Counted from the stretch's first letter, positions 6,621 through 55,863 are shown. The stretch is DNA of 64,000 nt from Candidatus Babelota bacterium (GCA_035445995.1 DAOMRS010000001.1:369203-433202), one strand, 5' to 3'. Program-made: numbers and translations. The notes: generated by a model not told the origin, from the letters alone.

Positions 6621-7355
6621 ATGAAAAAACTAAGTCTCATACTGTCTCTTCTAGTGAGCTTTCCTGTTAACCTATGGCCAATAGAACCTGTACAAACCAA
6701 AAATGGCATCAATATCAGCATTATCGGTTGCAATAACCCTACTAATAAAATAGTACCACTCCAGGTTGGTGGCTTGCCATTTGAACTTAATGAAAATCTT
6801 ACGGTACAAGACTTTACCGGTCAAGATATATATCCACTAGCAATTACGGTTACCAATACAACTGATAAACCACTGGTATTAATGCCATATTCAACGCGCA
6901 TTCCGCTTATTACCAACAAAGAAGAAATCACTAAGAAATTGCATCACCGAAACTACATAAAACCGCTCTTATTCTGGCTTGGATCCAGAATTATACAGAC
7001 TTTAATTATGGCTCCTATAGTGCTTAACAAGTCATTCAATATGGCTAACAGAGGTATGACACAAGAGGAAATTATGCTAACTCTATCTCAAGATCCAACC
7101 GTTATATTATCAAACCTATTTGATAGAGCAGCACTTTTTGCAACACCGGTATACTGGTGGTACTTGCGTAAATTAAACCAAGCAATTGATGCGGCGATTG
7201 GTCAATACTTGCTCGACAATAATGTAACCATTATGCCCGGTCAAACCATCAAAAAAATACTTGCTTGCAAATATCGCCCCGGAAGCATGCTCAATTTGAA
7301 TTTTTATGATCTATCCGGCCAAGTAGCCGAATCAATTGATCTTGCAATTAACTAA
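6621..7355 (+). CDS. hypothetical secreted protein
   Basis: 244 aa with signal peptide MKKLSLILSLLVSFPVNLW. It is the third gene of the same-strand cluster and is followed by a terminator hairpin. Confidence 0.6.
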   Translation: MKKLSLILSLLVSFPVNLWPIEPVQTKNGINISIIGCNNPTNKIVPLQVGGLPFELNENLTVQDFTGQDIYPLAITVTNTTDKPLVLMPYSTRIPLITNKEEITKKLHHRNYIKPLLFWLGSRIIQTLIMAPIVLNKSFNMANRGMTQEEIMLTLSQDPTVILSNLFDRAALFATPVYWWYLRKLNQAIDAAIGQYLLDNNVTIMPGQTIKKILACKYRPGSMLNLNFYDLSGQVAESIDLAIN

Positions 7356-24706: not shown

Positions 24707-25102
24707 TTAGCCAAATACCTTTTTATGCCAAAATGCTTTTTTATTATCATAAAACCATTTTTTGTTATCTTCAGTTAAAAATCTGCTCAATTGTTTTATG
24801 TCAATTTTGTATCTATAGAATAATGCAAGAAGTTCCATAAGATCAGCATCTGGTATTACATCAGTTTCAAAGTACAAATACAACTCGTCTCCAATACCAT
24901 CAAATTTTTTGATAGATGGTATTTTCTGTATCCATACAAAAAATAACATTTCATCTAATGCAGAAAAATACCAAATTTCTTTGCATGTTAAGACCAATTT
25001 ATATTTATTATTTCCTTTTCGGTCTTCTTTACTTTCAGGAAAAATATTCTTATGTCTTCCTGTCTTTAGGTTATGAACATCCCAATGTGGACCTACATGC
25101 AT
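24707..25102 (-). CDS. hypothetical protein; N-terminus resembles an orphan toxin C-terminal tip, remainder a possible immunity-type module
   Basis: N-terminus MHVGPHWDVHNLKTGRHKNIFPES parallels the SHGGSQYKVFKETSKGLEWIF segment at the C-terminus of the Hint toxin two genes upstream. The rest (…DLMELLALFYRYKIDIKQL…) is unrecognised. Confidence 0.45.
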   Translation of the reverse strand: MHVGPHWDVHNLKTGRHKNIFPESKEDRKGNNKYKLVLTCKEIWYFSALDEMLFFVWIQKIPSIKKFDGIGDELYLYFETDVIPDADLMELLALFYRYKIDIKQLSRFLTEDNKKWFYDNKKAFWHKKVFG

Positions 25103-25125
25103 TTATATCTCCTGAATTTTCTAAA

Positions 25126-25443
25126 TTATAATCCACGCTTCTTCCACCAATCATCTGTTTTGAATTCTTCTGGTAAAATTCCTTCTTCTTCAGCATAAGT
25201 ATCATTTTCTATGCCATACTCTTTTTCCAAGATATCAAAATATTGATCGCGCAAGCTTTCGGGCAACTTTGTACCACACCAAGGACAATATAATAAACAT
25301 TGTATTGCAGTTATTTTTTTTCTATAGCTCAATGGGATATAATATTCTCTATATTTAGGTATATACCCTATCTGTACTCTAATATCTTCTATAAAGTTAT
25401 TCATCAACTCACAACAATGTTCAGACGTATTTTTTATTTGCAT
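25126..25443 (-). CDS. hypothetical small Cys-containing protein (possible immunity-type protein)
   Basis: 105 aa with HCC...CPWCGTKLP Cys cluster. It lies inside the toxin cassette on the same strand. Confidence 0.5.
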   Translation of the reverse strand: MQIKNTSEHCCELMNNFIEDIRVQIGYIPKYREYYIPLSYRKKITAIQCLLYCPWCGTKLPESLRDQYFDILEKEYGIENDTYAEEEGILPEEFKTDDWWKKRGL

Positions 25444-25471
25444 TTTTTCACATATAAATCTTAAACAACCA

Positions 25472-25933
25472 TCATAGGTAGGCTACAAATACTTGTAGTC
25501 TATAGTCATCTTCGTCATCTGACATATTTTCTTCTATTGTTACTTCACTCCAAGGGATACCTTCATGATACGACGAAGTTTTAAAATTTTTCAATATTGA
25601 CAATGAGTCATGAACCAAATCAATCTTGCAACCAAATGGCAGCTGTGTAACGTGCCCAGAAATAATATTAAAACGTAACTGACTTGCCATCTCATCAAAC
25701 CACATGTATAACGTTTTATCTTGATTATTACTTTTTATTTGTAAAATAAGGTTATTGACAAATTTTTGTAAATCCTGTATCGACACTGTTTCTACTGCTC
25801 CTGGGTCAAGCGATATGCCCCACATATTAGTCAATGTTTCTTCATCACGTAGCTGGTGATTACCAGTTATGAGTACTGGACTATTCAAAATAATATTTAA
25901 ATCACTAGCTTGCTTAATAATGATATGATTCAT
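25472..25933 (-). CDS. candidate immunity protein, translationally coupled to the Hint-domain toxin
   Basis: Start ATG (25933-25931) overlaps the toxin stop TGA (25932-25930) as ATGA. It is an acidic 153-aa protein with no leader. Confidence 0.55.
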   Translation of the reverse strand: MNHIIIKQASDLNIILNSPVLITGNHQLRDEETLTNMWGISLDPGAVETVSIQDLQKFVNNLILQIKSNNQDKTLYMWFDEMASQLRFNIISGHVTQLPFGCKIDLVHDSLSILKNFKTSSYHEGIPWSEVTIEENMSDDEDDYRLQVFVAYL

Positions 25934-27000
25934 GAACAACCTATTATATCTTTGTATGGTATAAATATACCCGTTGGACCCTTATGTTTTCCCATTATGG
26001 GACTTCCTTGAGCATCTGCATCAAAAATCCATTCAAGTCCTTTAGATGTTTCTTTGAAAACTTTATATTGCGAACCACCATGACTTGCTCGATCCTTAGA
26101 CCACCAATATTTTGTATCTGGATCTTGGTATATATTACCAAACCGTTGCGTTCTTCCTCTCTTACCTTTTTTTGATTTAAATTTATCAAAAAAATTTGTT
26201 TTATTATTTTTGTCTTTATTTTCCGGATCTTCCGGACTACCACCTGCTGCCATTTTTGAATTGTTGTTATAATTACTCTGCGCATTATTATTCTCTTTTT
26301 GGTGCTGTTCAATATAAGCGGTATTAAATGACAACTTATAATCTACAACTTTTCTGCCAGCGATCTTTTTCCATATAATGCCAGCAACGCTTCCAATCAC
26401 CAGTCCACCTACAACAGCCGGCGCACCAATGCTCAAACCAAATAAACTTCCAAGTGCACCAAGCTCGAATGGGATTTTTGCCCCAGCTAATAATGCAACT
26501 GGCAACACCATGTTATGTGTGAGTACTGCATGTTGACCAACCAAGAAGGTGTGCGTATTTTGTACTTCAATAGAACAGACTGCTCGTTTATTTTTTATAA
26601 ACTCAACATAAGTAACAGGAATTAATGTGTTGTATTGTCCCAGAAGAATATCACCTTGGCGCAGCTCATATGCAGATACCCATTTGTTGGTCAGTGCAAG
26701 ATAGAATTCTTGTGTAGGTGTACAGATAATGTCATTACAACCACCATCAAGCCCTAGCGCAAAATAACAGTTAGTTTCACTTTTACCACCACTGGCAACA
26801 TGACTACTCACCCAACATTTTTTATCAACATCATAACTTGCTATAGATTGTTTTTTGTTCTTTGCAGCAAGTTCACATATTTGCTCCAAAGGATACCAAC
26901 TATTATGATCATTTTTGACTAAAGTAGATGGATCAAAACCATGGGAGCATAATTGAGATATGAATACTAAGCAAAAACCAGCAAGTATATAATACTTCAT
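25930..27000 (-). CDS. Hint-domain polymorphic toxin-like protein (leader + Hint + Gly-rich hydrophobic segment + C-terminal toxin-like module)
   Basis: Leader MKYYILAGFCLVFISQL, then a Hint signature from C-SHGFDPSTLV through TPTQEFY...WVSAYELRQGDILL...IEVQNTHTFLVGQHAVLTHN. Next comes the hydrophobic segment LAGAKIPFELGALGSLFGLSIGAPAVVGGLVIGSVAGII, a low-complexity N/K linker and a basic C-terminal domain. Confidence 0.75.
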   Translation of the reverse strand: MKYYILAGFCLVFISQLCSHGFDPSTLVKNDHNSWYPLEQICELAAKNKKQSIASYDVDKKCWVSSHVASGGKSETNCYFALGLDGGCNDIICTPTQEFYLALTNKWVSAYELRQGDILLGQYNTLIPVTYVEFIKNKRAVCSIEVQNTHTFLVGQHAVLTHNMVLPVALLAGAKIPFELGALGSLFGLSIGAPAVVGGLVIGSVAGIIWKKIAGRKVVDYKLSFNTAYIEQHQKENNNAQSNYNNNSKMAAGGSPEDPENKDKNNKTNFFDKFKSKKGKRGRTQRFGNIYQDPDTKYWWSKDRASHGGSQYKVFKETSKGLEWIFDADAQGSPIMGKHKGPTGIFIPYKDIIGCS

Positions 27001-27673: not shown

Positions 27674-28348
27674 TCACCGCGACTTTTTCACCCCTACCCG
27701 CGGGCATAGATCTGCAATTGCACATCGTGAACAAAATGGCGATATCGGCACACATACATTCTGGCCCCACATGACGAGGAGCTTGTTCCACTCACTCCAA
27801 TATTCTTTGGGCAGAATTTGTTGCAGTGCTTTTTCGGTTTGTTCTACAGTCTTGGTTTTGATCAGTCCAAGGCGATTAGAAATACGATGCACATGGGTGT
27901 CCACACAAATAGCGGGAATACCAAAGCCATCGGCCAACACCAGATTGGCTGTTTTGGAGCCCACGCCCGGCAAGCTCATGAGCTCATCTTTGGTATGAGG
28001 GACTTGCCCATTGAAGCGCTCTAAAATCTCTTTGCTCATGGCATGAATATTCTTTGCCTTGGTCCGATAGAAGCCGGTTGGGTAAATAAGTTTTTCTACG
28101 GTCTTGAGAGGTAGCTTGAGCATAGCTTGGGGGGTTTTGGCATGCTTGAAGAGTTCAAGCGAGGAAGGGAGTGAAATGGTATCTTTTGTCCGTAAGCTCA
28201 GAACACAGCTGACAAGTACCAGGTATGGGTCACGTCCAAATTTTTGGACAATTTGAGTAGCCGCCGGTGCCTCCATTCCTTCAGTTGCTATGCGCAACTT
28301 CTTGACTATTTGTATGGCGCGCTCACGGAGCGCATGATCCGACGGCAT
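27674..28348 (-). CDS. nth: endonuclease III
   Basis: Helix-hairpin-helix LPGVGSKTANLVL, catalytic region ICVDTHVHRISNRLG, and 4Fe-4S cluster C-x6-C-x2-C-x5-C (CVPISPFCSRCAIADLC). Confidence 0.92.
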   Translation of the reverse strand: MPSDHALRERAIQIVKKLRIATEGMEAPAATQIVQKFGRDPYLVLVSCVLSLRTKDTISLPSSLELFKHAKTPQAMLKLPLKTVEKLIYPTGFYRTKAKNIHAMSKEILERFNGQVPHTKDELMSLPGVGSKTANLVLADGFGIPAICVDTHVHRISNRLGLIKTKTVEQTEKALQQILPKEYWSEWNKLLVMWGQNVCVPISPFCSRCAIADLCPRVGVKKSR

Positions 28349-28426
28349 AACCTGCTCCTATAACGACCTTTAAGATTGTCGAGAGGTCGTTTTTTTGTTA
28401 GGATAAAGTATTAGGTGAGGTTTGGG

Positions 28427-28543: not shown

Positions 28544-28620
28544 TTAAACTCCTAAAAAAGCTTTTAACTAACAAGATTATCGCTAAGTATAATGCCACAA
28601 AACACGAATATCAATAAAAC

Positions 28621-31332
28621 ATGGTAAATATAATAAATTCCTTGATTTCTGTTGATGTAATAATTGGCAGTCCCCCTTTTCTGCTCAGTGTTTTTATTAT
28701 CTTTTTTTTATTCAAGGCATTATTATTAACTGCTCTTGTTAAAAAAGGCATACAAACAAACATAGCTAAATTACCATTAATCTTATTAGCTATTATTTTA
28801 TTAAGTTCTATGCTTGAAAACTCTGCATGGATATACAAATTTGTTCGTTCTTTATGGTTTCCACACACGGACTTTCGAATTTATCTTTTTTGGTTACGTT
28901 TGACATGGGGATTGTCTGTTATTCATTTCCAAACAATTGTATTATTTTTAGAAAGTTTAATAACAACGACACTTAGACTCAGATGGTATCATTACATACT
29001 TATCACTATTACCAGTTTATTTTTCTTATTTTTTACCGGACTGGCTATATTCAATTTCGATTGTGCTGAGAACATAGCTCGCCCGGAAATTGAATTCAGC
29101 GTACTAAAAATAGCTGGTATATATTCTAATGCTATTCTCTTTATTGCTGGGATTATAGCACTGTATCAATATCGGCAAAAAAATTTACCTCGTATCTTAA
29201 AAAAACAATTACAAGTATTACTTCAAGGTATAATTTTCCCCTACTGGTTATGCGATATCCTTCAAATTTATCCTCTTTCTTTTTCTCCAACTTGGACAAC
29301 CAATAGCTACACATTTGCATCACTATCAAACATAATTCTTATATTCGCATTCTATTTCTGTGCCCGTAGGATTATGGGGTTACGCTTCCTCAATTTTGAA
29401 AATCATGTACACACCAAAATTACCCGTTTTAGTTTTATGGATGATTTCAAAAATACCCTTGAACAATTGAGTTACGTTAACACTATTGAAGAGCTGCGTC
29501 ATATTACCCAAAGTTTTTTCAAAGAAGCATTTGATGTACCTCTTGGCAAAACAGCACTGCATATCCGTATATTGGATGCAGCTAGCGCTGAGCTACGCCA
29601 ACACGATATTATCACCAGCTGTGTGGAAACATTTTTTGGTATGCAAGATCAGAATGTACTCGATCATATCCGCCAGCAAAAAATACTCATCTATGACGAC
29701 ATTACATTCAGCAATTTTTATGAAAATCATGAAGCAGGCAATGCTATCGTCAGATTTATGGACAACTTAAATGCCGATGTATTCTTACCTATTTATGAAA
29801 AAAATAATTTGGTTGCTTACATTATCATTGATCGCCATGCACGCTTTGACCAATTCTATAGTAGTATCGAGCGAGATGAAATGCTTGTATTCTCAAGCTA
29901 CATGGGAAATATTATTCACCTATTACAAAGCAAATCGGTTGAAACACTGACACGTCAAACCAAAGAAATACAAGAAGAGTTGTATCGTAAACATCAAGAA
30001 ATTAACCAATACAAAGAAAGTATTCGTTCATTTTTGCGATATAAAAAACAACAAAGCATTGGTATTATTTTTTACAAAAACAATCGTTTTGTATTTGGCA
30101 ATCAAACAGCCAAGGAACTTATTCAAGTCAATATTAATATACAGTTAGGACATCCGATTAGTCGAGCACTCAAAAACGTTGCACAAACTGTAGAACAATA
30201 CAAAACACCTCAAACAAGTTTTATCAAAGATGTACAAGGTAATCCACTCGTACTTTCTGCAGTACCACATTTGGAGCATAACCAAGTTATTATCATGGTA
30301 CATTATCCGGAAATATCTGATATTCTCAAAAAACAACTTGATCTATTGCATGATCCTTCAGAATGGGATTTTGTATTGTATCTAGAAACCACTGAATCTG
30401 GTAAATTAATTAATCAATTAATTCCCGGATCCGGGCCAGCATTGCTCAAGTTTAAAATTGAATTGCTCAAAATCGCATTGAGCAGAAAGGCTATATTGCT
30501 CGATATGCCTGAAGAAGATTTGCTCTCAACCGTCGAACTATTACATCACACTAGTTTGCGTGATAACTTACATACACTCGACTTGCAACACCCCATAAAA
30601 AATAATGATATTGCCATACAATTATTCGGTATTAATCCTATTTTTGGGATTGAGCATGACAAGCCGCTTCTTGAAGTATTGGATAAAACAGGAACCTTGT
30701 ATATTAAAAACATTGAATACTTAGACCAAGAAACACAAAAACACCTAGCAGAATTTATTCGCTATGGTTTTTTCCGCACCTTCAAAAGTGACCAAAAAAT
30801 TCCAAGCCATGTACGTATTATCTGTTCGAGTAACAGAGACTTGCAAACACTTGTACAACAAAATGCTTTTAATGCTGATTTGTTCAATGAACTTAAGCAA
30901 ACCACCCTTTCTATGCCATCACTTGTAACTTTACCAGATGATGAATTGAAAGATTTAGCACAAGGATTCAGTGATTTGGCAGTCAAAACACAAGCATTTA
31001 AAAATATGCTTACATTGTCCGAACGTGATAAAGACAAAATCGCACACATGCGGCCTGCAAGTTTGCAAGAACTTAAAACAAATGTACAAAATATATTAGT
31101 GAAAAAATCTCAGAAAAGTAATATCTATGAAGAAACGGGATTTGATCCTGCTTACCAAACTATTGACCCTGAGTTAGCGCGAGTCGCACGCCTTGGCAAG
31201 CAGGCATTAAAGGATCGCAAGATTATGACCTTATTGTGGGAAAAATTTCAAAGCCAACACAAAATTGCTGCGTTTCTTGGTGTCAATAGATCGTCCGTGA
31301 GTCGACGATTCAAAGAATATAACCTAGAGTAG
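28621..31332 (+). CDS. 7-TM membrane protein with sensor region, degenerate sigma-54-activator-type AAA+ domain and C-terminal Fis-type HTH (paralog 1)
   Basis: About 7 hydrophobic helices lie in residues 1-250. The C-terminal third is collinear with the NtrC-type central domain (VRIICSSNRDLQTLVQQNAFNADLFNEL...LSMPSL). However, Walker A is replaced by LLDMPEEDL, Walker B DE by LYIKNIEYLD, and GAFTGA is absent. The HTH is IAAFLGVNRSSVSRRFKEYNL. Confidence 0.7.
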   Translation: MVNIINSLISVDVIIGSPPFLLSVFIIFFLFKALLLTALVKKGIQTNIAKLPLILLAIILLSSMLENSAWIYKFVRSLWFPHTDFRIYLFWLRLTWGLSVIHFQTIVLFLESLITTTLRLRWYHYILITITSLFFLFFTGLAIFNFDCAENIARPEIEFSVLKIAGIYSNAILFIAGIIALYQYRQKNLPRILKKQLQVLLQGIIFPYWLCDILQIYPLSFSPTWTTNSYTFASLSNIILIFAFYFCARRIMGLRFLNFENHVHTKITRFSFMDDFKNTLEQLSYVNTIEELRHITQSFFKEAFDVPLGKTALHIRILDAASAELRQHDIITSCVETFFGMQDQNVLDHIRQQKILIYDDITFSNFYENHEAGNAIVRFMDNLNADVFLPIYEKNNLVAYIIIDRHARFDQFYSSIERDEMLVFSSYMGNIIHLLQSKSVETLTRQTKEIQEELYRKHQEINQYKESIRSFLRYKKQQSIGIIFYKNNRFVFGNQTAKELIQVNINIQLGHPISRALKNVAQTVEQYKTPQTSFIKDVQGNPLVLSAVPHLEHNQVIIMVHYPEISDILKKQLDLLHDPSEWDFVLYLETTESGKLINQLIPGSGPALLKFKIELLKIALSRKAILLDMPEEDLLSTVELLHHTSLRDNLHTLDLQHPIKNNDIAIQLFGINPIFGIEHDKPLLEVLDKTGTLYIKNIEYLDQETQKHLAEFIRYGFFRTFKSDQKIPSHVRIICSSNRDLQTLVQQNAFNADLFNELKQTTLSMPSLVTLPDDELKDLAQGFSDLAVKTQAFKNMLTLSERDKDKIAHMRPASLQELKTNVQNILVKKSQKSNIYEETGFDPAYQTIDPELARVARLGKQALKDRKIMTLLWEKFQSQHKIAAFLGVNRSSVSRRFKEYNLE

Positions 31333-31567
31333 TGATCCTTTTGCCCATACCTCTCATTTTTGTTGCGTTTGTGTATCAACACACTCTATACTCACGAAGG
31401 TGGAAAACGCAAAAATGTTTTCACAACCACAAGTAATTGACACAAAAGATCAATTATTTGACTATCATACATCATGATTTGGACTCCTATGGGTTCCTAA
31501 GAAGTAATAGTTATGTTAAAGTACGTAGAGTAGTATAAACAGTTGCATATGCAAAATCAATGATAAC

Positions 31568-34312
31568 ATGGTAAAAATATTAGAAGCACTTAATACAATT
31601 GTTCATAGCCCGCAGTTATTGCTTGCTACTATAACAATTTCATTTACCGTTAAAACATACTTTTTGGCAATTCTTATTCCAAAGGGCTTAAAATCAAGAA
31701 CTTTCCATAGGCCATGGTTCTTTGCCTTGGGCATTTTGGGGTGTTCATTATTTGGTGATATTGCGTGGATGATTAAGCTATATCGTCTTGTATTTAATCC
31801 AGCCATTTCGTACACAACAGTCACCTTCTTGACTCGTATTGCATGGACTTTTGTAGTTCTACAATATCAATCACTTGCCTTCTTTATCCAAAGTTTAATG
31901 GATAAATATTTTAAGCCCACGCGTATCCAACAATTCTTTGTATGCGTTAGCATGCTCATAGCGGGATATTTTTTATATGAAGCATTCTTTGATACTACTT
32001 TAATAAGTGAAGAAGAACGCGAACTTGCCAAAGCGTTGAGCACCAACATTCCATTAGAAATAAATGCCATGCGCTACACCGTACTCTATATCTTATTTGG
32101 GCTCATTGTACCTAGTTTATACAATACGTTCCGCTTGATGCGTTCCAAGTTACTTCCTAAAATTTTACGTAAACAATTAAATATTTTTATCAAATATTTG
32201 GTATGTCCTTATTTGATGACTGAGGTTATACAAACCTCATATTTTATGGTTATTGCCATTCAACCATACATTCTACCTTTGGTAAATTTCTCTACGATAT
32301 TGCTTATTATGGCTACCTATTATTGCATGCATAAAGTCATGGGACTACGATTCTTGAATTTTTCAAGCCACGTCACGTCTGTGCCACGACTCAATGCTCT
32401 TTCTAACTTCAAAACACATTTGGAACAACTCAGCCAAGCAAGTAGCCTCTATGAACTCATGCAAGTAACTCAACTATTCTTCAATGAAGCCTTACATGTT
32501 CCCCTGCGAGATACGACACTTTTGAGTCGTCAGGATGAACATGTAGTAGGCGCACAAATGAATGACAAACATTTAACTAAAAAATTAGTCGAAGAATTCA
32601 TGCGATCACACAGCGATTCTGTCTGCAAAATTATTGAAAAATTAAAAATTTTGGTCTATGACGAAATTGCATTCTCTCACTTTTATGAAGAAGATGAAGA
32701 TCGTAATGCGCTACTTAATTTCCTTGATACCATTGATGCAGAAATCTTTTTACCTATTTATGCGCAAAATAGCATGATTGCATATATCACCGTAAAAAAA
32801 GGTGCTCGCGGTGATGCATGTTATAATGATAGTGAACGTGATGAAATGATTGTATTTGCAAGTTATTTGGGTAGCAGCATTAACTTACTTAATAACAAAA
32901 ACCTTGATACCATGGTCACCCATGCTAAAAAACTACAAAACGAACTTTACATTAAACATCAAGAAATAAATCAATACAAAGAAAGCATCCGCTCATTCTT
33001 ACACAACAAAAAACGTAAAGACATGGGCACCAAAGATATTGGTATCATTTTTCATAAAAACCGAGAGTTCGTATTTGGTAACCAAGCGGCAAAAGAACTG
33101 ATTCAAATAAACCTCAATGAACAACCTGGGCACCCACTCAGCAAGGCCTTCAAAACTATTGCACATGATGTGTATACCTACAAAGCTCCACAAAAACAAT
33201 TTGCTAAAGACAGTAATGGTAATACACTCGTACTTTCTGGCGTACCTCATTTGGAACAACAACAAGTAATTATTACCGTATCATATCCTGATATTGCAGA
33301 CATTATTACTAATCAATTTGGTCATCTACAAAATCCAACCATGTGGGATTATGTATTGTATTTAGAAACAACTGAAACTGGTAAACGTATTAATCAACTT
33401 GTTCCGGGTACCGGCGAAGTAATATTGAACTTTAAAATTGCATTACTCAAAACTGCATTAAGCAAACAAACCGCTCTTATTGATGTGCCTGATGATGATA
33501 TTGTGCCAATCGTAGAATTATTACATAGCATTAGTCTGCGTGAAACACTTTATACGCTGAATTTGCAGTATGTAACACAGCACCAAGATATTGCCATGCA
33601 ATTATTTGGGACCAACCCAATACTCCGCTCATCTGACGAACGCCCTCTATTAGAAGTTTTGCATGACAGCGGTACCCTATTCATAAAAAATATCCACTTA
33701 CTTGATCTGGAAACACAAGCGTTGCTCACTGAATTTATGCAACAAGGATTATATCGCCCCTATAAAGGTGATCAAAAAGTAGCAAGCAATACGCGTATAT
33801 TATGCTCAACTAACCAAAACTTATCATTGTTAGTGCGAGATGGAAAATTCTTGGCAGAATTACTCCACGAACTCAAGCGCAATACACTTTCGATGCCATC
33901 ACTCATTGCACTACCAACTGATGAATTGTTCAATTTGGCAGATGGATTTGCTGAACAAGCAATTCAAGCACACACGTTCCAAAACTTATTATCGCTTACC
34001 GATAAAGATAAACAAAAATTAATACAAAAACAGCCAACAAGCCTCCAAGAATTAAAGACACGCGTACATCAGATATTATTACTTAAATCAAAAGAAAATA
34101 ATTTAGAACAAGATCCCGATCTTGACCTGGTATACGATGTGAATGATCCACTGCTCATTGAAGCTGCACGGCTTGGTAAATATGCACTCAAAGATCAAAA
34201 GATCATGTCCACCCTATGGGAAAAGTTCCAAAATCAAAATAAAATTGCTACATTCTTGGGCGTTAATCGCTCATCAGTCAACCGGCGATGTCGAGAATAT
34301 AATTTAATCTAG
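31568..34312 (+). CDS. 7-TM membrane protein with sensor region, degenerate sigma-54-activator-type AAA+ domain and C-terminal Fis-type HTH (paralog 2)
   Basis: Same architecture as 28621..31332, with identical blocks such as KHQEINQYKESIRSFL, MGLRFLNF and LGVNRSSV. Walker A position LIDVPDDDI. Walker B position LFIKNIHLLD. HTH IATFLGVNRSSVNRRCREYNL. Confidence 0.7.
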   Translation: MVKILEALNTIVHSPQLLLATITISFTVKTYFLAILIPKGLKSRTFHRPWFFALGILGCSLFGDIAWMIKLYRLVFNPAISYTTVTFLTRIAWTFVVLQYQSLAFFIQSLMDKYFKPTRIQQFFVCVSMLIAGYFLYEAFFDTTLISEEERELAKALSTNIPLEINAMRYTVLYILFGLIVPSLYNTFRLMRSKLLPKILRKQLNIFIKYLVCPYLMTEVIQTSYFMVIAIQPYILPLVNFSTILLIMATYYCMHKVMGLRFLNFSSHVTSVPRLNALSNFKTHLEQLSQASSLYELMQVTQLFFNEALHVPLRDTTLLSRQDEHVVGAQMNDKHLTKKLVEEFMRSHSDSVCKIIEKLKILVYDEIAFSHFYEEDEDRNALLNFLDTIDAEIFLPIYAQNSMIAYITVKKGARGDACYNDSERDEMIVFASYLGSSINLLNNKNLDTMVTHAKKLQNELYIKHQEINQYKESIRSFLHNKKRKDMGTKDIGIIFHKNREFVFGNQAAKELIQINLNEQPGHPLSKAFKTIAHDVYTYKAPQKQFAKDSNGNTLVLSGVPHLEQQQVIITVSYPDIADIITNQFGHLQNPTMWDYVLYLETTETGKRINQLVPGTGEVILNFKIALLKTALSKQTALIDVPDDDIVPIVELLHSISLRETLYTLNLQYVTQHQDIAMQLFGTNPILRSSDERPLLEVLHDSGTLFIKNIHLLDLETQALLTEFMQQGLYRPYKGDQKVASNTRILCSTNQNLSLLVRDGKFLAELLHELKRNTLSMPSLIALPTDELFNLADGFAEQAIQAHTFQNLLSLTDKDKQKLIQKQPTSLQELKTRVHQILLLKSKENNLEQDPDLDLVYDVNDPLLIEAARLGKYALKDQKIMSTLWEKFQNQNKIATFLGVNRSSVNRRCREYNLI

Positions 34313-34329
34313 CTCTGATAGGTACCACC

Positions 34330-35247
34330 ATGAACTTAGAGCAATTTAAGTCAAAGAAAAAAGAATTTCTTACGTATCTTCAAGTTGAACGCAACCTGTC
34401 CGATCATACTTTACGTGCTTATGAAGGCGATCTACGTCAATTTATTACGTTTTGGGAATATCTAGCACCAGCAGAACAAAAAAGTCTGGGGCTTCGGCAA
34501 ATTATTGAACGATATTTAGTAGGACTTTTTTATAAAAAAATAGATAAAAGTTCTATTGCACGTAAATTTTCATGCTTTAAATCTTTTACCCACTTTTTGC
34601 AATCACAAGGTATAAAAATTGATTTGAATCTCAAGCGCCCACGCTTGGATAAAAAGCTGCCTGTCTATTTAAGCATTGATGAAATGTTCCATCTACTGGA
34701 TTCCGTTAATAACAATGAATTGCCAACCCGTTATCCGCTTCGTGATAAAACTATTTTAGAACTTTTATATGCTACTGGCGTACGGTGTTCGGAGCTGATC
34801 AGCATGCGCCTGTGTGACATTGATATGGATAATAAAACCATACGCGTAAGTGGTAAAGGTAAAAAAGAACGTATCGTATTATTTGGCGATAAAGCAAAAG
34901 ATAAATTAGCTGAATATATTCTTACTGAACGTCCAGCTGCAAAAAAACAAGATGAACCACTTTTTTTGAATTACCGCAAAGAACCCTTTACAGCACGCTC
35001 GGTACAACGCGTTATTGAAATGTTCCGTAAATTTCTAAAAATTGATCGACACATAACTCCTCACAAAATTCGCCATTCATTTGCTACGCACTTACTCAAT
35101 CAAGGAGTAGATTTGCGTGTAGTGCAAGAATTGCTTGGCCACAAAACACTCGCAAGCACCGAAAAATATACCCACGTATCTCTCGATGATCTTGCCCGTA
35201 TGTGTGATGCCTTACACCCTATAAATACTATGCTCAAAAAGAAATAG
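34330..35247 (+). CDS. tyrosine recombinase, XerC/XerD family
   Basis: N-terminal SAM-like domain (LSDHTLRAYEGDLRQF). Catalytic residues are in GVRCSEL, HKIRHSFATHLL and LGHKTLASTEKYTH. Confidence 0.88.
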   Translation: MNLEQFKSKKKEFLTYLQVERNLSDHTLRAYEGDLRQFITFWEYLAPAEQKSLGLRQIIERYLVGLFYKKIDKSSIARKFSCFKSFTHFLQSQGIKIDLNLKRPRLDKKLPVYLSIDEMFHLLDSVNNNELPTRYPLRDKTILELLYATGVRCSELISMRLCDIDMDNKTIRVSGKGKKERIVLFGDKAKDKLAEYILTERPAAKKQDEPLFLNYRKEPFTARSVQRVIEMFRKFLKIDRHITPHKIRHSFATHLLNQGVDLRVVQELLGHKTLASTEKYTHVSLDDLARMCDALHPINTMLKKK

Positions 35248-35249
35248 TA

Positions 35250-36977
35250 ATGAACCTACGCTCACAACACACACTCAATTACAAGATCTACATCATCGCT
35301 TATATTACCTATTGTATTATCGGCATTATGGTGCTTCGTTTAATGTACCTACAGATCAGTTTAACGGAACGCTTTACCACACGCAGTCAAAAAAACTTTT
35401 TGCAAATCAAAACAATACAATCACCTCGCGGCAATATTATTGACCGCTATGGCAGATTACTCGCTACCAACCGTCCACTCACTAATTTACTATGGCAAGG
35501 TACCGGACAATATCGCTTGCTACCAGAGCAATACGATATGCTTGAAAAAATAAGTGCTATAGTCAATAAACCAATCACACACGATGAAGAATTAATAAAA
35601 AAAATTACACACGCAGAACGTCACCGCAAGCAAACACTTATTGCAACTGATCTATCACTCGAACAGTTAAGCCAAATTGCAGAACAGTTTTCAAGCACAT
35701 CAAATATAACTATTTCAACCCACTTTAAACGACATTACCCACACCACGCCTTTGCAAGTCATTTGCTCGGCTATCTTGGCACTATGGGCATAGATCAATA
35801 TGGCAAAACAGGACTGGAAAAATTATTTGAAGACACACTCAAAGGTGAACACGGAACCGAAGTAAATGTTATCGATTCACTTGGTCGCAATGTAACACAA
35901 ACCACACTCAAAGAAGCTCTTTGTGGTAACACCATACAAACCACGTTAGATATTGATTTACAACAACTGTGTGAGAATGTATTTCCTGCTGATGTATGTG
36001 GTACCTGCATTATTATGGACCCGACCGATGGCGCATTACTTGCCGTATTGTCTCGTCCTAATTTTGATCCAACTATTTTTTTAGAAAAAATACGTGATGA
36101 TGTATGGCAAGAATTACAAAAAAACAATCCTTTTTTAAATCGCGCATTTAACGCTATGTACCCTCCCGGCTCCATATTTAAACTCATTACCATAACTGCA
36201 GCACTTGAAGAACATTTAATAGAACAAGACGCCACCTTTAACTGTAAGGGCTTCTATACGTTTGGTGATCATACGCACTGGTGTAATCGTAAATCAGGCC
36301 ACGGTAAATTAACACTTAATCAAGCTTTAGCACAATCATGTAACCCGCCACTGTATTACATTGGCGCTCATATGGATATTGATACATTGGCAAGCTATGC
36401 GTATAAATTCGGCTTAGGCAAAAAGACAAATACTATGTTCCCTGAGCAAACAGGCATTGTCCCAAATAAAAGTTGGAAACAAGAAAAAAAAGGAGAACGA
36501 TGGTGGCCTGGTGAAACCTTGTCGGTCGCAATTGGCCAAAGCTTTTTATTGGCAACACCTATCCAAATCGCACGTATGATCTCTGCCATTTACACGGGTT
36601 ATTTAGTAAATACACGCATTCTGTTTAATCAACCTATAGAAAAGCAATTACTTGATATCAATCAAGACACACGTAAATTCCTAAAAAAATCAATGCGACG
36701 AGTAGTTACTAGTGGTACAGGTAAACGATTAAAATATCTAAAAGATATCAAAGTCTATGCAAAAACGAGTACTGCTCAAACAAGTGCTCTAGAAAAACGT
36801 AATTTATCCGCTGATTATTGGGAACACGGTTGGTTTGCAGGCAACATTGTGTATAAAGACCATGCACCACTAACCATAGTGATATTGGTAGAACGTGCCG
36901 GTTCAGCTTCAGTATCAACCGAAATTGCCAAGGAGTTCTTAATTAGATATAAAAAGCTAATGGATGGAAAAGTTTAA
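35250..36977 (+). CDS. penicillin-binding protein 2 family peptidoglycan transpeptidase
   Basis: N-terminal TM anchor and PBP dimerisation region. Transpeptidase S-x-x-K motif PPGSIFK. The late motif is KTSTAQ (K-T-G-type position). Confidence 0.85.
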   Translation: MNLRSQHTLNYKIYIIAYITYCIIGIMVLRLMYLQISLTERFTTRSQKNFLQIKTIQSPRGNIIDRYGRLLATNRPLTNLLWQGTGQYRLLPEQYDMLEKISAIVNKPITHDEELIKKITHAERHRKQTLIATDLSLEQLSQIAEQFSSTSNITISTHFKRHYPHHAFASHLLGYLGTMGIDQYGKTGLEKLFEDTLKGEHGTEVNVIDSLGRNVTQTTLKEALCGNTIQTTLDIDLQQLCENVFPADVCGTCIIMDPTDGALLAVLSRPNFDPTIFLEKIRDDVWQELQKNNPFLNRAFNAMYPPGSIFKLITITAALEEHLIEQDATFNCKGFYTFGDHTHWCNRKSGHGKLTLNQALAQSCNPPLYYIGAHMDIDTLASYAYKFGLGKKTNTMFPEQTGIVPNKSWKQEKKGERWWPGETLSVAIGQSFLLATPIQIARMISAIYTGYLVNTRILFNQPIEKQLLDINQDTRKFLKKSMRRVVTSGTGKRLKYLKDIKVYAKTSTAQTSALEKRNLSADYWEHGWFAGNIVYKDHAPLTIVILVERAGSASVSTEIAKEFLIRYKKLMDGKV

Positions 36978-36990
36978 ATATAATCTATAT

Positions 36991-37024
36991 AAAAAAAGGG
37001 ACCCCCAAGGGCCCCTTAAATTTT
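36991..37024. terminator. bidirectional terminator-like hairpin between the PBP2-family gene and rpsT
   Basis: A7-GGGaCCC-ccaa-GGGcCCC-TT hairpin. It has a clean T-run on the minus strand (rpsT side) and a weaker one on the plus strand. Confidence 0.55.
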
Positions 37025-37038
37025 GAATACAGCATCAT

Positions 37039-37308
37039 TTACGCACGATCAGCTTGTGCAACTTTTTTTGCCAAGCGACTCATTTTGCGAGCTGCGGTAC
37101 CGGCATGGATTAAGCCTTTGCTTTTTGCACGGCTTAATTGGGCACTCACGTCTTTCAATAATTCTTTTGCTTGTGCAACATCTTGTTCTTCAAGCGCTAC
37201 TAATACTTTTTTAGTTGCTGTTTTGATTGCAGATTTGCGTGCAAGATTACGTACTGATTTTTTTTCTGTTTGTTTTACGCGTTTTTTTGCAGATTTAATA
37301 TTTGGCAT
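37039..37308 (-). CDS. rpsT: 30S ribosomal protein S20
   Basis: MPNIKSAKKRVKQTEKK... is a typical S20 N-terminus. 89 aa, basic. Confidence 0.92.
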   Translation of the reverse strand: MPNIKSAKKRVKQTEKKSVRNLARKSAIKTATKKVLVALEEQDVAQAKELLKDVSAQLSRAKSKGLIHAGTAARKMSRLAKKVAQADRA

Positions 37309-51399: not shown

Positions 51400-53196
51400 T
51401 TATGTCCTTATTTCCCGTACGGTTCCAGGAAAATACTGTAATATAAGATTTGTTTTTTGCCACACTGATGTATCAGACACGTCAATAGGATATGAATCTG
51501 GCTGTTTATGCATAGACATAGAACGTCCGTTGTTCCGTTGGTGCATCACACTATGTTGCGGTCTTGTTTGATTGTATACTTTGCTAACAGATGTTTTTTG
51601 TACTTGAACTGCTTTGGATGCATGCAATGTTGTTGCAGTATTTGGTGTTTTTTGTTCAATTGGCGCAGCAACATGCTTAATGACAATTTCTTTCTTCGCA
51701 CCACTAAATAACGGATTGAACTTTACTTGTTTATTAAATACCGTACACAATATTGGAAACCAAAGTTTTTCAGTACTTTTTAACCAATCAGAAAAGAATG
51801 ATAAATCTTTAGAAAATTCAACATCTAATGCACCGGTAGCCGGATTATAATTTTTTACTGAACCTTGTGTGAAGATTGAAGTAACCAATGGATCATTAAT
51901 TGTTTGTATCTGCACTATAAAAGTCTGCCATTGTTTTTGAAATTCTTCTTCTTCTATTTCCTCTTCCTCATCTTCTTCATCAAAATCTCCTTCATCTTCT
52001 TCATCATCTAGCAAATCTTGAGACTCGTCTTCTACCATAGGAACTGATGCCTGTTGTACAGGAGATGATGAACCTTCAGGATCTTTTTTGATGCTATGCG
52101 TATGGCATAGTTGCAATAGGATCATTTCGAGTAATGAATACTTAGCAGTCGTTCTCAAAAATGCAGATTCATTTTCATAGAATGTATCTAATATGTGGTT
52201 AATATGCGCAAGAGAAACATGCGTTGCTATATGTGAAAGCTCTGATGCATAATCACTAAACTGCTCTGATGCTACACCATGTTTTGCCCAAAGTAATGCT
52301 CGAGCAAGATCCAATAGTCGCCCCCATACATATTCCGGTGCATACGTAGATAGTTTGATTTCTTTTATGGTCTGTAATAACGTTGCAGGGGTTTTAGTCA
52401 CCACCGCATCAAACAAACCCAAAATACGCGCATCATCAAGATATCCTAATACATTGAGTACTGCCTCTTTATTTACAATACTACTTGAAAAACGCACTTG
52501 TTCGAGCATATTCAAAGCATCACGTGCAGAACCATCTGTTTCTTTTACAATATAATGCAGACCATCTTCATCAAATTGAATATTTTCTTGCACGCATATA
52601 TTTTGCAAATGATGCACTAATGTATTCACTTCAATTGACTTGAAAAATAATTGAAAGCAACGGGATCTAACCGTATCAATAATTTTATGCGGATCTGTTG
52701 TTGCTAAGATAAAAAGCACTGATGATGGCGGCTCTTCAAGTACTTTAAGTAACGCATTAAATGCTGCTTTACTCAACATATGCGCTTCATCGATCAAATA
52801 AATTTTCTTAGTACCCATTAGCGGCATTAATGACGCTGCATCAACAATTTGTCGAACATTATCTACACCGGTATGTGAAGCAGCATCCATTTCTATAAAA
52901 TCTGGATGTTTACCCGCAAGCATAGCGGTGCATGATATGCACGTCAAACATGGTAACTGAGCTTTTTGAGGTTTTTGTTGGAATAATTCCAGTTGCTCAC
53001 AATTGAGCGCCATTGCAAATACGCGAGCCGTCGTTGTTTTACCACACCCACGCTGACCAGAGAATAAATATACAGGAAAGTATTGGCCCTTATAGAGACT
53101 GTTTTTGAGCATACGAACAGAAAGTTCTTGCCCAACAATTTCATTAAAATTTTTTGACCGCCACTTGCGTGCGAGGTTCAACTTTACCGTATTCAT
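51400..53196 (-). CDS. dnaX: DNA polymerase III subunit gamma/tau
   Basis: LARKWRSKNF..., Walker A GQRGCGKTTTAR, Zn module CEQ...C..C..C, Walker B YLIDEAHML, and SRC. Start moved to ATG 53196. Confidence 0.92.
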   Translation of the reverse strand: MNTVKLNLARKWRSKNFNEIVGQELSVRMLKNSLYKGQYFPVYLFSGQRGCGKTTTARVFAMALNCEQLELFQQKPQKAQLPCLTCISCTAMLAGKHPDFIEMDAASHTGVDNVRQIVDAASLMPLMGTKKIYLIDEAHMLSKAAFNALLKVLEEPPSSVLFILATTDPHKIIDTVRSRCFQLFFKSIEVNTLVHHLQNICVQENIQFDEDGLHYIVKETDGSARDALNMLEQVRFSSSIVNKEAVLNVLGYLDDARILGLFDAVVTKTPATLLQTIKEIKLSTYAPEYVWGRLLDLARALLWAKHGVASEQFSDYASELSHIATHVSLAHINHILDTFYENESAFLRTTAKYSLLEMILLQLCHTHSIKKDPEGSSSPVQQASVPMVEDESQDLLDDEEDEGDFDEEDEEEEIEEEEFQKQWQTFIVQIQTINDPLVTSIFTQGSVKNYNPATGALDVEFSKDLSFFSDWLKSTEKLWFPILCTVFNKQVKFNPLFSGAKKEIVIKHVAAPIEQKTPNTATTLHASKAVQVQKTSVSKVYNQTRPQHSVMHQRNNGRSMSMHKQPDSYPIDVSDTSVWQKTNLILQYFPGTVREIRT

Positions 53197-53343
53197 GTCT
53201 GTTCTTTTGGGTGAGTTTGTTATGCTATGCTCTATACTCACATGGGGAAGTTGTACAAGATATACTTGTGCCCCTGCTGCTTCCTTTCGGACCTGACAGA
53301 TTAAGCCAAGATTCTTTACATACTTCCCCAAAATTTTTATTTT

Positions 53344-53432
53344 CGGAGAGAGAGGGATTCGAACCCTCGATGCCTCTTACGAGACATACACGATTTCCAA
53401 TCGTGCTCTTTAGACCACTCAGACACCTCTCC
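53344..53432 (-). tRNA. tRNA-Ser (anticodon GGA), CCA not encoded
   Basis: Reverse strand GGAGAGGTGTCTGAGTGGTCTAAAGAGCACGATTGGAAATCGTG...GAGGGTTCGAATCCCTCTCTCTCCG. Anticodon stem CACGA/TCGTG with loop TTGGAAA. Long variable arm. T-arm GAGGG-TTCGAAT-CCCTC. Confidence 0.9.
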
Positions 53433-54441: not shown

Positions 54442-55863
54442 CTATATTTTTATTGCCTCTTCATCCAAACCAATAACCTCATTCTTTGCTATAGCGCGAT
54501 CAAATCGACGACCAAGCAAATATGCAGCCATAAACCATAACCCCACTACTCCTGCGAAGAAGAAAGAATGTAATGGCATATACATGGAAACAGATACCTG
54601 TGTAGTTGCCCAGTTAAATGCCGATCCACTAGTCTTAGCAAATTTACTACCAAAGGCATCAATCCATGATTTTGATTTAAACTTAATTTCTTTAACTGTT
54701 GGTATATATAAACTTTCCCTGACTGGCCAGCTAAATGCCAAGTTAATAGATTTTAAGATACTATATGCTAATCCAAACATAAATGGCGATGCATCAAACA
54801 TTACATAGCACAATACTGCCCCACATACTAACGGTATTAAAAAAAGACACACTCGTGTACCTAGCCGCTTGAGTAATTCTCTCGTACCCAGTAACGAGAT
54901 AAGAAACCCAATAGCATGAGATAACATGATCATCCATAATAAATTTGCCGTTACTCCCGCAAGCGTATCAGCATTCGCTTCTGCAACTTTTAAACGCAAA
55001 AAACTCAAAACTGTGCTGACAACTTCGTAAAAATAAACCATACCAAATATACCCAAAACATATGGATATCGAATTAGCAACCATAATCCGGCAAACATAC
55101 CAGTTTCATTTTTACCCTCTTTCTTTCGTAACTTTTCCGCTTGATACACTGCTTCATAACCATGTAAATACTGGCCAGGAACATGTTTTATCATCATTAA
55201 TGTCATAATCGGCACTAAAATAAGCATACATGATGACATAGCATAGACTAACTGATGCGCATAAATGTCCACACTACGTGAATAGGTAGCAGAAGCACTT
55301 ATACCGCTCAATATAATCCAAGCAATAAGTGCACTTGTTACACCACCAAATTTAGACCCTGCAACCATCAATCCATAATTGTTTTTTGCTTCTTGAGGGC
55401 TAGAAATTGAGTTTGCAAACGCCCAAAATACACTGACCAAAAATGGTGAATATGCTTCGACAAAAAAGTAAAATACCCATCCAAATATACGATCGGGACC
55501 TATATTCGTGTTTGGTAATCCAATAACCGGATGCCCTAATAAATAAGTAAAAAGAAACCCTAGCATCCCAAAAAATAACGCACAATAGTTCAGTAATTGA
55601 TAACGACGCACCTTATCTACTAACTTTGAATATAAAAAAATTGCTGGCATAAGCCCAAATAACACCACCGTGCGCGCAAGAGGAACATATTCTCTACCTA
55701 CTATTTGCAAAAACACCGAATCTTTCAATTCTTTAGCTATAGTATATCCACCAATAATCAAACAAAATGCCATAGACAAAAACAATAGCTTTTGCCGCTC
55801 ATGCGGCTCAACATCAAAAAGCGCTCCAAACACGTTTCTTATTTTCGACCCCATTCCCATCAA
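54442..55863 (-). CDS. ATP/ADP translocase family nucleotide transporter (Tlc/NTT), copy 1
   Basis: About 12 TM helices. N-terminal family signature ERQKLLFLSMAFCLIIGGYTIAKELKDSVF. Confidence 0.8.
   Translation of the reverse strand: MMGMGSKIRNVFGALFDVEPHERQKLLFLSMAFCLIIGGYTIAKELKDSVFLQIVGREYVPLARTVVLFGLMPAIFLYSKLVDKVRRYQLLNYCALFFGMLGFLFTYLLGHPVIGLPNTNIGPDRIFGWVFYFFVEAYSPFLVSVFWAFANSISSPQEAKNNYGLMVAGSKFGGVTSALIAWIILSGISASATYSRSVDIYAHQLVYAMSSCMLILVPIMTLMMIKHVPGQYLHGYEAVYQAEKLRKKEGKNETGMFAGLWLLIRYPYVLGIFGMVYFYEVVSTVLSFLRLKVAEANADTLAGVTANLLWMIMLSHAIGFLISLLGTRELLKRLGTRVCLFLIPLVCGAVLCYVMFDASPFMFGLAYSILKSINLAFSWPVRESLYIPTVKEIKFKSKSWIDAFGSKFAKTSGSAFNWATTQVSVSMYMPLHSFFFAGVVGLWFMAAYLLGRRFDRAIAKNEVIGLDEEAIKI

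Follow-up and report, generated by a model that had tools for sequence, protein, structure and literature searches.

Can a protein that is built like a sigma-54 activator still act as one when the catalytic elements of its AAA+ domain have been replaced, and, if not, what is the domain kept for? This question is raised by two adjacent genes, here called A and B, in a 64,000-nucleotide stretch of DNA from a Candidatus Babelota bacterium (GCA_035445995.1, DAOMRS010000001.1:369203-433202; below, the window). Proteins that match A and B exactly are named "sigma 54-interacting transcriptional regulator" in the public NCBI records. An initial annotation, made from the sequence alone, read them as membrane-integral one-component DNA-binding regulators that kept the scaffold of NtrC-type bacterial enhancer-binding proteins (bEBPs) as a structural or oligomerisation module while losing ATPase activity and sigma-54 coupling. 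Every test run here agrees with the core of that reading, that is, with membrane integration, retention of the scaffold and loss of both couplings; DNA binding and a regulatory function of A and B are putative.

Both reading frames, of 903 and 914 residues, were found with exactly the proposed extents. Their products share one architecture and are full-length paralogues, which align end to end with 45% identity (BLASTP, E = 0); identity is only 25% in the transmembrane domain and, by estimate, ~55% in the cytoplasmic part. The predicted order in A and B is a seven-transmembrane (7TM) module, a GAF-like region, a long helix, a PAS-like domain, a bEBP-type AAA+ domain and a TyrR/Fis-type helix-turn-helix (HTH). 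The full-length AlphaFold2 (AF2) model, computed from a 113-sequence alignment, has a predicted local distance difference test score (pLDDT) of 83.7.

A bEBP-type AAA+ domain with its catalytic motifs replaced

The C-terminal third of both proteins had been described as collinear with NtrC-type bEBPs, which is borne out by profiles, by sequence and by predicted structure. Pfam Sigma54_activat (PF00158) matches A and B with E 2.6e-11 and 3.3e-10, and Sigma54_activ_2 (PF14532) matches with E 1e-14, all above the gathering score; coverage is restricted to profile positions ~92-168 of 168, i.e. from about Walker B on. NCBIfam models of DhaR (the top match of gene A), PspF, NtrX, TyrR and others are matched in part and far below threshold, at 40-60 bits versus cut-offs of 440-800 bits. 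In phmmer searches against the PDB, residues 603-824 of A were aligned to the entire AAA+ core of the Aquifex NtrC-family structure 3dzd (E 2.5e-10), and the VpsR structure 7v2b was a weak sequence match (E 0.002). When the full AF2 model was searched with Foldseek, the top 50 matches were all bEBP AAA+ domains, NtrX being the first and FlrC, PspF and NtrC1 being among the others. The alignments comprise 230-248 columns of bEBP cores of ~240 residues, with target-normalised template-modelling (TM) scores of 0.60-0.68. Since these columns span the bEBP cores, the whole AAA+ fold appears to be kept, including the subdomain that normally bears Walker A.

The motifs within this fold are another matter. 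In the 3dzd alignment, GESGTGKE of Walker A is replaced by DMPEEDLL in A, LFLDEV of Walker B by LYIKNI, FREDLYYRL of the arginine finger by FNADLFNEL and the GAFTGA segment by INPIFGIEHD; the PLReR position, which holds the sensor II arginine, reads PSLVTLPDDEL. The same positions are replaced in B, so that the claim of a loss of catalytic and sigma-54-contacting elements holds for both copies. How general these losses are was seen in an alignment of 211 family members, 100 of them from genome loci, with every tandem copy included, and 111 from the protein database. Not one of the 211 has a P-loop (searched as G....GK[ST] in the C-terminal part), a GAFTGA-like motif or the Asp-Glu (DE) pair of Walker B, in place of which QN (92 members), KN (88) and EN (13) are found. 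Both window proteins, like the commonest family variants, have another residue in place of the finger arginine. The position of the P-loop is taken by a conserved acidic loop, [EDST][MI][PAN][EDQ][ED]D[LV] (xMPEEDL), in which D633 is invariant. Judged from this alignment and from the substitution rates given below, the motif loss is ancestral, universal and selected. An AAA+ domain without P-loop, Walker B acidic pair and GAFTGA would be unable to hydrolyse ATP or to remodel the sigma-54 holoenzyme, and the sequences strongly support that the domains of A and B have neither ATPase activity nor sigma-54 remodelling capacity.

The sigma-54 question

That A and B are canonical sigma-54-dependent activators is nevertheless what their public name implies, and PF00158 does score above its gathering threshold. 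The match, however, is to the second half of the model only, the NCBIfam scores stay far from their cut-offs, and the family-wide absence of Walker A, the Walker B pair and GAFTGA, together with the missing finger arginine, speaks against this assignment. With neither a nucleotide site nor GAFTGA, A and B could not be sigma-54 activators, whether rpoN is present or not. No RpoN was found among the 32 open reading frames (ORFs) of the window that were scanned against Pfam, and neither an RpoN-box nor a GAFTGA peptide in 1.59 Mb of Dependentiae DNA, the latter being a check of low power. In the literature, including the Chromulinavorax, Babela and TM6 comparative-genomics papers, no statement on rpoN or sigma-54 in Dependentiae/TM6 was found. 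Matches to the sigma-54 promoter consensus occurred 3- to 6-fold more often than in mononucleotide shuffles; this -24/-12 excess was rejected as an artefact of coding composition because the sites are scattered, lie mostly in long open frames and occupy no conserved intergenic position. A canonical activator is thus extremely improbable, and the "sigma 54-interacting" label on the family is probably wrong in function. Hundreds of related entries carry, where they are named, this label or a TyrR/AcoR-type one, and these labels are probably misleading with regard to function.

Conservation and selection

A scan of GTDB r232 with one genome per species returned 113 relatives, and 80 loci were fetched, most of which have one and the same Dependentiae gene neighbourhood. 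The records of the 113 read Dependentiae, Babeliales, TM6 or generic "bacterium", with some Pseudomonadota and Proteobacteria labels. As far as can be told from the sequence records, the family is confined to Dependentiae, where it occurs phylum-wide. The titles "uncultured Pseudomonadota bacterium" and "Proteobacteria bacterium" were met at L008, L016, L020, L021, L024, L036, L044, L045, L048, L055, L061, L062, L064 and L066; most of these oddly titled contigs carry the nth-xerC-mrdA-S20-L28-FtsH neighbourhood, and L062 carries only the family gene. Public records assign one further protein, P0054, which shares 52% identity with A, to "Candidatus Limnocylindria". All of these names on family carriers are probably taxonomic mislabels of metagenome-assembled genomes.

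A loss of all catalytic motifs is also what one would expect of decaying pseudogenes or of relics under relaxed selection. This candidate was rejected: frames of ~900 aa are intact in hundreds of genomes, the mean column identity of the family is 61%, and the ratios of non-synonymous to synonymous substitution rates (dN/dS, Nei-Gojobori) are low, at 0.04-0.12 for the cytoplasmic domains. The comparison of the two window paralogues that had been suggested for this purpose was uninformative, dS between A and B being saturated; for this reason, closer pairs from other genomes, all with unsaturated dS, were used. In these pairs the dead AAA+ domain gave 0.065 at dS 0.17, 0.124 at dS 0.58 and, in one more pair, 0.076; the values were 0.04-0.08 for the PAS-like and HTH parts and 0.15-0.30 for the transmembrane domain. 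The dead AAA+ domain is under strong purifying selection. With the losses present in all 211 members and a dN/dS of 0.065-0.12 in the dead domain, the argument of the initial annotation against decay has gained in strength, and decay is scarcely credible at all. Among the motifs that are specific to the family and largely invariant are HQEINQYKESIRSFL, WDYLLYLETT.SGK.INQLIPGSG and GLRFLNF.

The same annotation took the pair for a duplication, which is correct as to paralogy and not as to a local event. Across many genomes, first copies are orthologues of first copies and second copies of second copies, so the duplication is old; A and B belong to a Dependentiae-wide family with this early copy-1/copy-2 split and several recent duplications, at 68-89% identity, in addition. 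Copy 2 evolves faster than copy 1. Some tandem pairs diverge as mosaics: at L047:9980-15700, dS is 0.04 over residues 441-835 versus 0.8-1.7 in the transmembrane, GAF-like and HTH parts, a pattern that points to a PAS/AAA+ core homogenised by gene conversion beside diverging sensor domains. The tandem copies at L027 have a dS of 0.80 in the transmembrane domain versus 0.17-0.32 elsewhere, and those at L054 show mosaic divergence likewise.

The membrane domain

About seven N-terminal transmembrane helices had been proposed for each protein. As the Foldseek search with the whole model was dominated by AAA+ matches, a separate AF2 model of residues 1-265 was built (pLDDT 85.6; predicted TM score, pTM, 0.82). 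It consists of seven long helices and a short N-terminal helix, and the distribution of positive charges is in agreement: in 36 diverse members, Lys+Arg average 13.9 in loops 1, 3 and 5 and the C-tail versus 3.4 in the N-terminus and loops 2, 4 and 6, indicating an N-out/C-in topology. A 7TM bundle with its N-terminus outside and its C-terminus inside, joined via GLRFLNF to the cytoplasmic chain, is strongly supported by these models and counts. The conserved polar residues R93, W96, E158 and Q215 lie together in the outer part of the bundle.

The module does not resemble a described membrane domain at the level of Pfam: 7TMR-DISM_7TM (PF07695) was not matched by A or B at E up to 10, nor was any other transmembrane family matched, and no Pfam family recurred among 36 diverse transmembrane domains of the family (7TMR-DISM and HisKA_7TM included). 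A profile of the 7TM module retrieved 394 proteins at E <= 1e-3 from 1.84 billion representative proteins. In every one of the best 150 of these 394 matches the module is N-terminal, and the proteins are ~870-1050 aa long, or shorter and apparently truncated; among the same best 150, none couples the module to another output, all resembling the family or its fragments. In a Foldseek search of the 7TM model against the PDB, the top 50 were all class A G-protein-coupled receptors (GPCRs), with E 2e-3 or worse, query-normalised TM scores of 0.44-0.57 over ~270-300 columns, a root-mean-square deviation of 6-10 A and 8-16% identity. We read this resemblance of the model as generic similarity between seven-helix bundles and not as evidence of homology.

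The sensor chain and the helix-turn-helix

The region between the membrane and the AAA+ domain had been called GAF/PAS-like by position. Its PAS part has the support of the model: the AF2 model of residues 480-561 runs strand-strand-helix-helix-strand-strand-strand, which is the canonical PAS topology, and weak matches to MEKHLA (PAS-like) were located at this stretch in 7/60 members. The GAF assignment of residues 272-437 is tentative. A ZapG-like signal in 23/60 members was tempting in view of the neighbouring mrdA gene; it maps to the long helix with 12-15 bits versus a cut-off of 33.5, beside other coiled-coil families, e.g. PhoU, and was rejected as coiled-coil noise.

At the opposite end of the chain, the HTH is collinear with the C-terminal ends of the DhaR, TyrR, AtoC and PrpR models of NCBIfam. 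No other part of the protein is as invariant in the family alignments: in the motif LGVNRSS.xRR, residues L886, V888, N889, R890, S891, S892, R895 and R896 are invariant, and G887 and V893 are conserved to at least 90%.

Genomic context and expression signals

The coordinates of the features of A, B and their immediate neighbours are collected in Table 1. The conserved gene order is nth (-), family gene(s) (+), xerC (+), mrdA/PBP2 (+), ... S20, L28, IMPase, FtsH (-). The family gene is present once in 48 of the 80 loci, twice in 29 and three times in 3; almost all of these loci have nth upstream, on the other strand, and xerC follows immediately downstream in most, often with just 18-26 nt between it and the last regulator gene. 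In the window, 18 nt separate the stop of B from the start of xerC and 3 nt the stop of xerC from the start of mrdA, and terminator-like hairpins are seen only after mrdA.

Table 1. Positions of genes, predicted domains, motifs and signals in the window
Feature	Coordinates	Strand	Basis or remark
nth, endonuclease III (HhH-GPD)	27674..28348	-	Pfam HhH-GPD E 1.4e-24; divergent upstream neighbour
Gene A, sigma-70-type promoter TTAACT, 18 nt, TATAAT (predicted)	28564..28593	+	10/12 matches; best + strand site of region
Gene A, -10 within AGTATAAT	28586-28593	+	
Gene A, leader motif ATCAATA	28610..28616	+	16 nt past -10, 4 nt before ATG
Gene A, 903 aa	28621..31332	+	Exact match HRN77980.1 / HRQ62598.1
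A residues 1-262, 7TM module, N-out/C-in (predicted)	28621..29406	+	AF2, positive-inside count
A residues 2-15, short N-terminal helix		+	AF2 model of transmembrane domain only
A transmembrane helices, residues 18-45, 50-78, 85-114, 122-144, 156-186, 191-216, 230-258		+	AF2
A juxtamembrane GLRFLNF, near-invariant, end of 7TM module	29377-29397	+	
A residues 272-437, GAF-like sensor region (tentative)	29434..29931	+	AF2 secondary structure, weak GAF_2
A residues 440-474, long signalling helix with near-invariant HQEINQYKESIRSFL	29938..30042	+	
A residues 480-561, PAS-like domain	30058..30303	+	AF2 topology, weak MEKHLA
A residues 606-832, catalytically dead bEBP-type AAA+ (predicted)	30436..31116	+	PF00158 / PF14532, 3dzd, Foldseek
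A Walker A position LLDMPEEDLL	30496..30525	+	Acidic loop in place of GxxGxGK
A GAFTGA (L1 loop) position GINPIFGIEHD	30628..30660	+	
A Walker B position LYIKNI	30697..30714	+	DE pair replaced by KN
A arginine-finger position FNADLFNEL	30868..30894	+	bEBPs: FREDLYYRL
A residues 850-903, TyrR/Fis/NtrC-type HTH (putative)	31168..31329	+	Collinearity, 1g2h
A HTH segment HKIAAFLGVNRSSVSRRFKEYNL	31258-31326	+	
Gene B, own -10-like AGTATAAA	31532-31539	+	Then 16 nt
Gene B, leader motif ATCAATG	31556-31562	+	Spacing from -10 as upstream of gene A
Gene B, 914 aa	31568..34312	+	Exact match HRN77981.1 / HRQ62599.1; layout as gene A
B end of 7TM module	~32371	+	
B dead AAA+ (predicted)	33416-34096	+	
B Walker A position LIDVPDDDIV	33476-33505	+	
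B Walker B position LFIKNI	33677-33694	+	
B arginine-finger position FLAELLHEL	33848-33874	+	
B HTH (putative)	34238-34306	+	
xerC/xerD-type tyrosine recombinase	34330..35247	+	Pfam Phage_integrase + SAM-like N domain
mrdA-like class B penicillin-binding protein (PBP2)	35250..36977	+	Pfam Transpeptidase + PBP_dimer
Terminator-like hairpins after mrdA	36996-37059		

The family genes are predicted from their upstream sequences to be read from sigma-70-type promoters. In the 106 upstream regions of family genes from loci L001-L080, a -10 element like AGTATAAT (<= 1 mismatch, ~100 nt upstream of ATG) is found before 64 genes, mostly ~35 nt before the ATG, and [TG]CAAT(A) occurs within 25 nt of the start in 58/106 family genes versus 16/298 control genes. 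In the 64 regions anchored on the -10, this element and the ATCAATA leader are the only conserved ones. The ATCAATA-type motif may serve translation or may be a half-site for autoregulation. The leader of gene A has no Shine-Dalgarno sequence, and a core of this type precedes 10/106 family genes versus 37/61 xerC genes. AGGA/GGAG-type sites are commoner before the neighbouring genes as well (20-61% versus 9% in family genes).

At the end of gene B (34297-34329 of the window), the conserved C-terminal codons GAA TAT AAT (E-Y-N) give a TATAAT ~30 nt before the start of xerC, and 11/61 loci have an exact TATAAT at a distance of 20-60 nt before xerC; this may be an internal xerC-mrdA promoter or a by-product of AT-rich codon use. 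Between nth and A, directly before the start of nth, a strong hairpin (28361-28398, ACGACCT..AGGTCGT, then T7 on the + strand) falls in the 5' leader of nth on the - strand.

Elsewhere, the window fits an energy-parasitic Dependentiae genome: its GC content is ~37%, and it encodes two TLC ATP/ADP translocases, WD40 proteins, Lon and FtsH. The tandem TLC-type translocase genes (54442-57364, - strand; 473 and 444 aa) are a hallmark of Dependentiae energy parasitism. The block at 24707-27000 (- strand) looks like a polymorphic toxin/immunity-type cassette; its 356-aa protein matches Pretoxin-HINT weakly (E 7e-4, under the Pfam cut-off) and has sporadic homologues at other loci (L014, L068), and after it come three small ORFs, of which one is DUF6980 and two are without a Pfam match; the local GC content goes down to 0.33. 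On the - strand, a bacterial small signal recognition particle (SRP) RNA (53238-53332) and a tRNA (53344-53432) lie directly upstream of dnaX; the ORF 51400-53331, when begun at its TTG, extends into the SRP RNA, and the true start of dnaX is probably further downstream. A 505-aa classic AAA ATPase (PF00004; 5079-6596, + strand) is encoded between ORFs 3315-5066 and 6621-7355, both without a Pfam match.

Functional interpretation

In our view, A and B are probably one-component regulators that are integral to the membrane, belong to the atypical enhancer-binding protein (EBP) kind and work independently of ATP and of sigma-54. They could function in the following manner: A signal would be sensed in or across the membrane by the 7TM domain, where R93, W96, E158 and Q215 may take part, and would be passed on via the GAF-like region, the helix and the PAS-like domain. 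The dead AAA+ domain would act as a scaffold for oligomerisation and geometry, setting the presentation of the HTH to DNA near the membrane, and the regulator would repress or activate sigma-70-type promoters without using ATP. Its likely targets would include its own block, regulator(s)-xerC-mrdA, control of which would make cell-wall growth and the resolution of chromosomes responsive to cues from the envelope or the host. A tandem second copy, whose 7TM domain has diverged far more, would probably respond to another cue and may form joint assemblies with copy 1.

Several observations weigh against this interpretation. A protein tethered by seven transmembrane helices has only membrane-proximal DNA within its reach, and no conserved motif further upstream was detected when the 64 regions anchored on the -10 were searched for an operator. 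The linkage to xerC and mrdA may be plain conservation of gene order in a compact genome. Scored alone, the HTH stays under the Pfam thresholds, so that the Fis/NtrC-type ends claimed at the outset hold by collinearity with bEBP C-termini but not by Pfam score; its best PDB match, the DNA-binding domain of a TyrR homologue (1g2h), has an E of only 0.09. In the AF2 model, residues 272-437 are only partly GAF-like, being rich in helices with few strands, and the GAF_2 matches (11/60 members, best E 0.005) are weak. Sequence and profile searches of the sensor region against the PDB gave zero matches, which leaves the GAF/PAS assignment to AF2 topology and weak Pfam matches. Finally, the pTM of the full-length model is only 0.52, which makes the mutual arrangement of the domains tentative.

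Beyond the canonical activator and the relic, other explanations have to be considered. The tight, same-orientation linkage of the family to xerC and mrdA throughout the phylum, with gaps of 18-26 nt, the predicted permanent anchoring in the membrane and an HTH that is invariant phylum-wide, as would fit one conserved chromosomal site, could all be accommodated by a membrane-anchored DNA-tethering or cell-cycle factor, in which the HTH holds a chromosomal site and the dead AAA+ ring is an assembly platform with XerC and PBP2. A chain of 7TM, GAF-like and PAS-like domains is, however, typical of signal-responsive regulators, the characterised homologues of the AAA+/HTH cassette are all transcription factors, and no DNA site near the locus proved to be conserved; such a factor is therefore quite unlikely. 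The difficulty of DNA access would be solved if A and B were membrane precursors from which a protease frees a soluble GAF-PAS-AAA+-HTH part on signal, to act as a free transcription factor. The lower AF2 confidence of the membrane linker (residues ~259-271 of A) and the presence of FtsH and Lon genes in the window, ubiquitous as both are, would be in keeping with this, yet no cleavage motif was identified, and the near-invariant GLRFLNF resembles a coupling element and not a cleavage site. The short proteins among the best 150 matches of the 7TM profile look like contig-end fragments, in a search that did not extend to soluble forms without the transmembrane domain. We regard proteolytic release as very unlikely.

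A comparably low probability is given to the view that the pseudo-active site binds a small ligand, for instance a cyclic dinucleotide, with FleQ and VpsR as models, or, by a non-canonical mode, some other nucleotide, and that this ligand, and not the 7TM domain, is the main switch. The new conserved motif with its invariant Asp at the P-loop position would offer such a site, VpsR is among the weak sequence matches, and, according to PMC6158489, VpsR acts with cyclic di-GMP and FleQ is cited as contacting it via Walker A. The strong acidity of the loop (E-E-D), which has no glycines and no lysine, would disfavour phosphate binding. The interpretation as a membrane-integral one-component regulator can, on the other hand, be carried further: A and B would then be GPCR-like, phylum-specific receptors, wired to a DNA-binding output via an AAA+ ring that has turned into a ligand-controlled assembly switch with an acidic plug for the P-loop, and would constitute the principal host/envelope sensor and master regulator of growth and division (xerC-mrdA and beyond), with tandem copies diversifying the sensor and gene conversion keeping the outputs compatible for hetero-oligomers. 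This far-reaching version is unlikely, if still worth bearing in mind.

Dependentiae are obligate intracellular bacteria with genomes of ~1 Mb, and a 2.7-kb regulator gene, in 1-3 copies, is fixed beside xerC and mrdA in ~80 of their genomes. As a one-component regulator, its product would be a prime candidate for a switch through which growth and division are tied to cues from the host or the envelope. For Chromulinavorax, the published gene inventory lists just three transcriptional regulators, namely merR, yebC and fmdB (PMC6561590). For the biology of bEBPs and AAA+ proteins at large, the family would be an extreme case of a motor turned pseudoenzyme and a clean system for scaffold roles beyond ATP hydrolysis; to signal transduction it would add a one-component architecture leading from 7TM to DNA.

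Comparison with known systems

The closest relatives in function are presumably the atypical EBPs, e.g. TyrR and DhaR of E. coli, PhhR of P. putida, VpsR of V. cholerae, NtrX of B. abortus, HupR of R. capsulatus and HsfA of M. xanthus, which share with A and B a GAFTGA-less bEBP-type AAA+ domain and a C-terminal HTH of Fis/TyrR type. Individual searches place DhaR (NCBIfam, gene A), NtrX (Foldseek) and the DNA-binding domain of TyrR (HTH) nearest. TyrR and DhaR have a PAS domain directly before the AAA+ domain, as do A and B by prediction; DhaR, with the domain order GAF-PAS-AAA+-HTH, regulates a sigma-70 promoter, and TyrR and NtrX still bind ATP. The differences lie at both ends of the mechanism. 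Atypical EBPs are soluble, with REC, ACT or GAF N-termini, whereas the N-terminal 262 residues of A form a predicted 7TM domain, with the same layout in B; in A and B, moreover, the whole P-loop has become an acidic loop, Walker B is lost family-wide and the arginine of the finger is replaced in both proteins and in the commonest variants. PMC6158489 lists TyrR, HupR, HsfA, PhhR, NtrX and VpsR as bEBP homologues without GAFTGA that act on sigma-70 promoters, VpsR being a worked example of such sigma-54-free action, and states that only some atypical EBPs have a non-consensus Walker A or B. The suggestion that the architecture represents an undescribed family thus needs to be narrowed: the GAFTGA-less class was already recognised, and the suggestion holds for the fusion with a 7TM domain and for the P-loop, which is replaced in full. 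What is new in A and B is the family-specific 7TM receptor fusion and the fully rewritten nucleotide site. The 7TM-to-DNA one-component architecture is not in Pfam, and no paper describing it was found.

Canonical bEBPs (NtrC, NtrC1, PspF, NifA, DmpR, FlrC, ZraR) share with A and B the AAA+ fold, over ~235 columns at the target-normalised scores given above, the order of elements and the C-terminal HTH; they differ in possessing the catalytic and sigma-54-contacting motifs, and A and B are membrane-integral. Anantharaman and Aravind reportedly described, in 2003, the bacterial 7TM receptors 7TMR-DISM and 7TMR-HD, which are fused to cytoplasmic signalling modules. The logic of an N-terminal seven-helix bundle joined to cytoplasmic signalling or output domains is common to them and to A and B, but A and B have no sequence match to them in Pfam and no extracellular sensor domain, with ~17 residues outside; we know of no description of a dead AAA+ domain with an HTH as the output of such receptors. 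Class A GPCRs of eukaryotes and viruses are the only PDB folds that resemble the 7TM model, and they are N-out/C-in too, in a database that is heavily weighted towards GPCRs. ToxR, CadC, TcpP and BcrR, finally, are membrane-bound one-component regulators with 1-4 transmembrane helices and winged-helix or XRE DNA-binding domains, located at the N-terminus in ToxR, CadC and BcrR. Like A and B, they combine membrane sensing and a cytoplasmic DNA-binding domain in one polypeptide without a phosphorelay; in A and B, by contrast, seven N-terminal transmembrane helices would be connected through a relay of ~640 residues to a Fis-type HTH at the extreme C-terminus.

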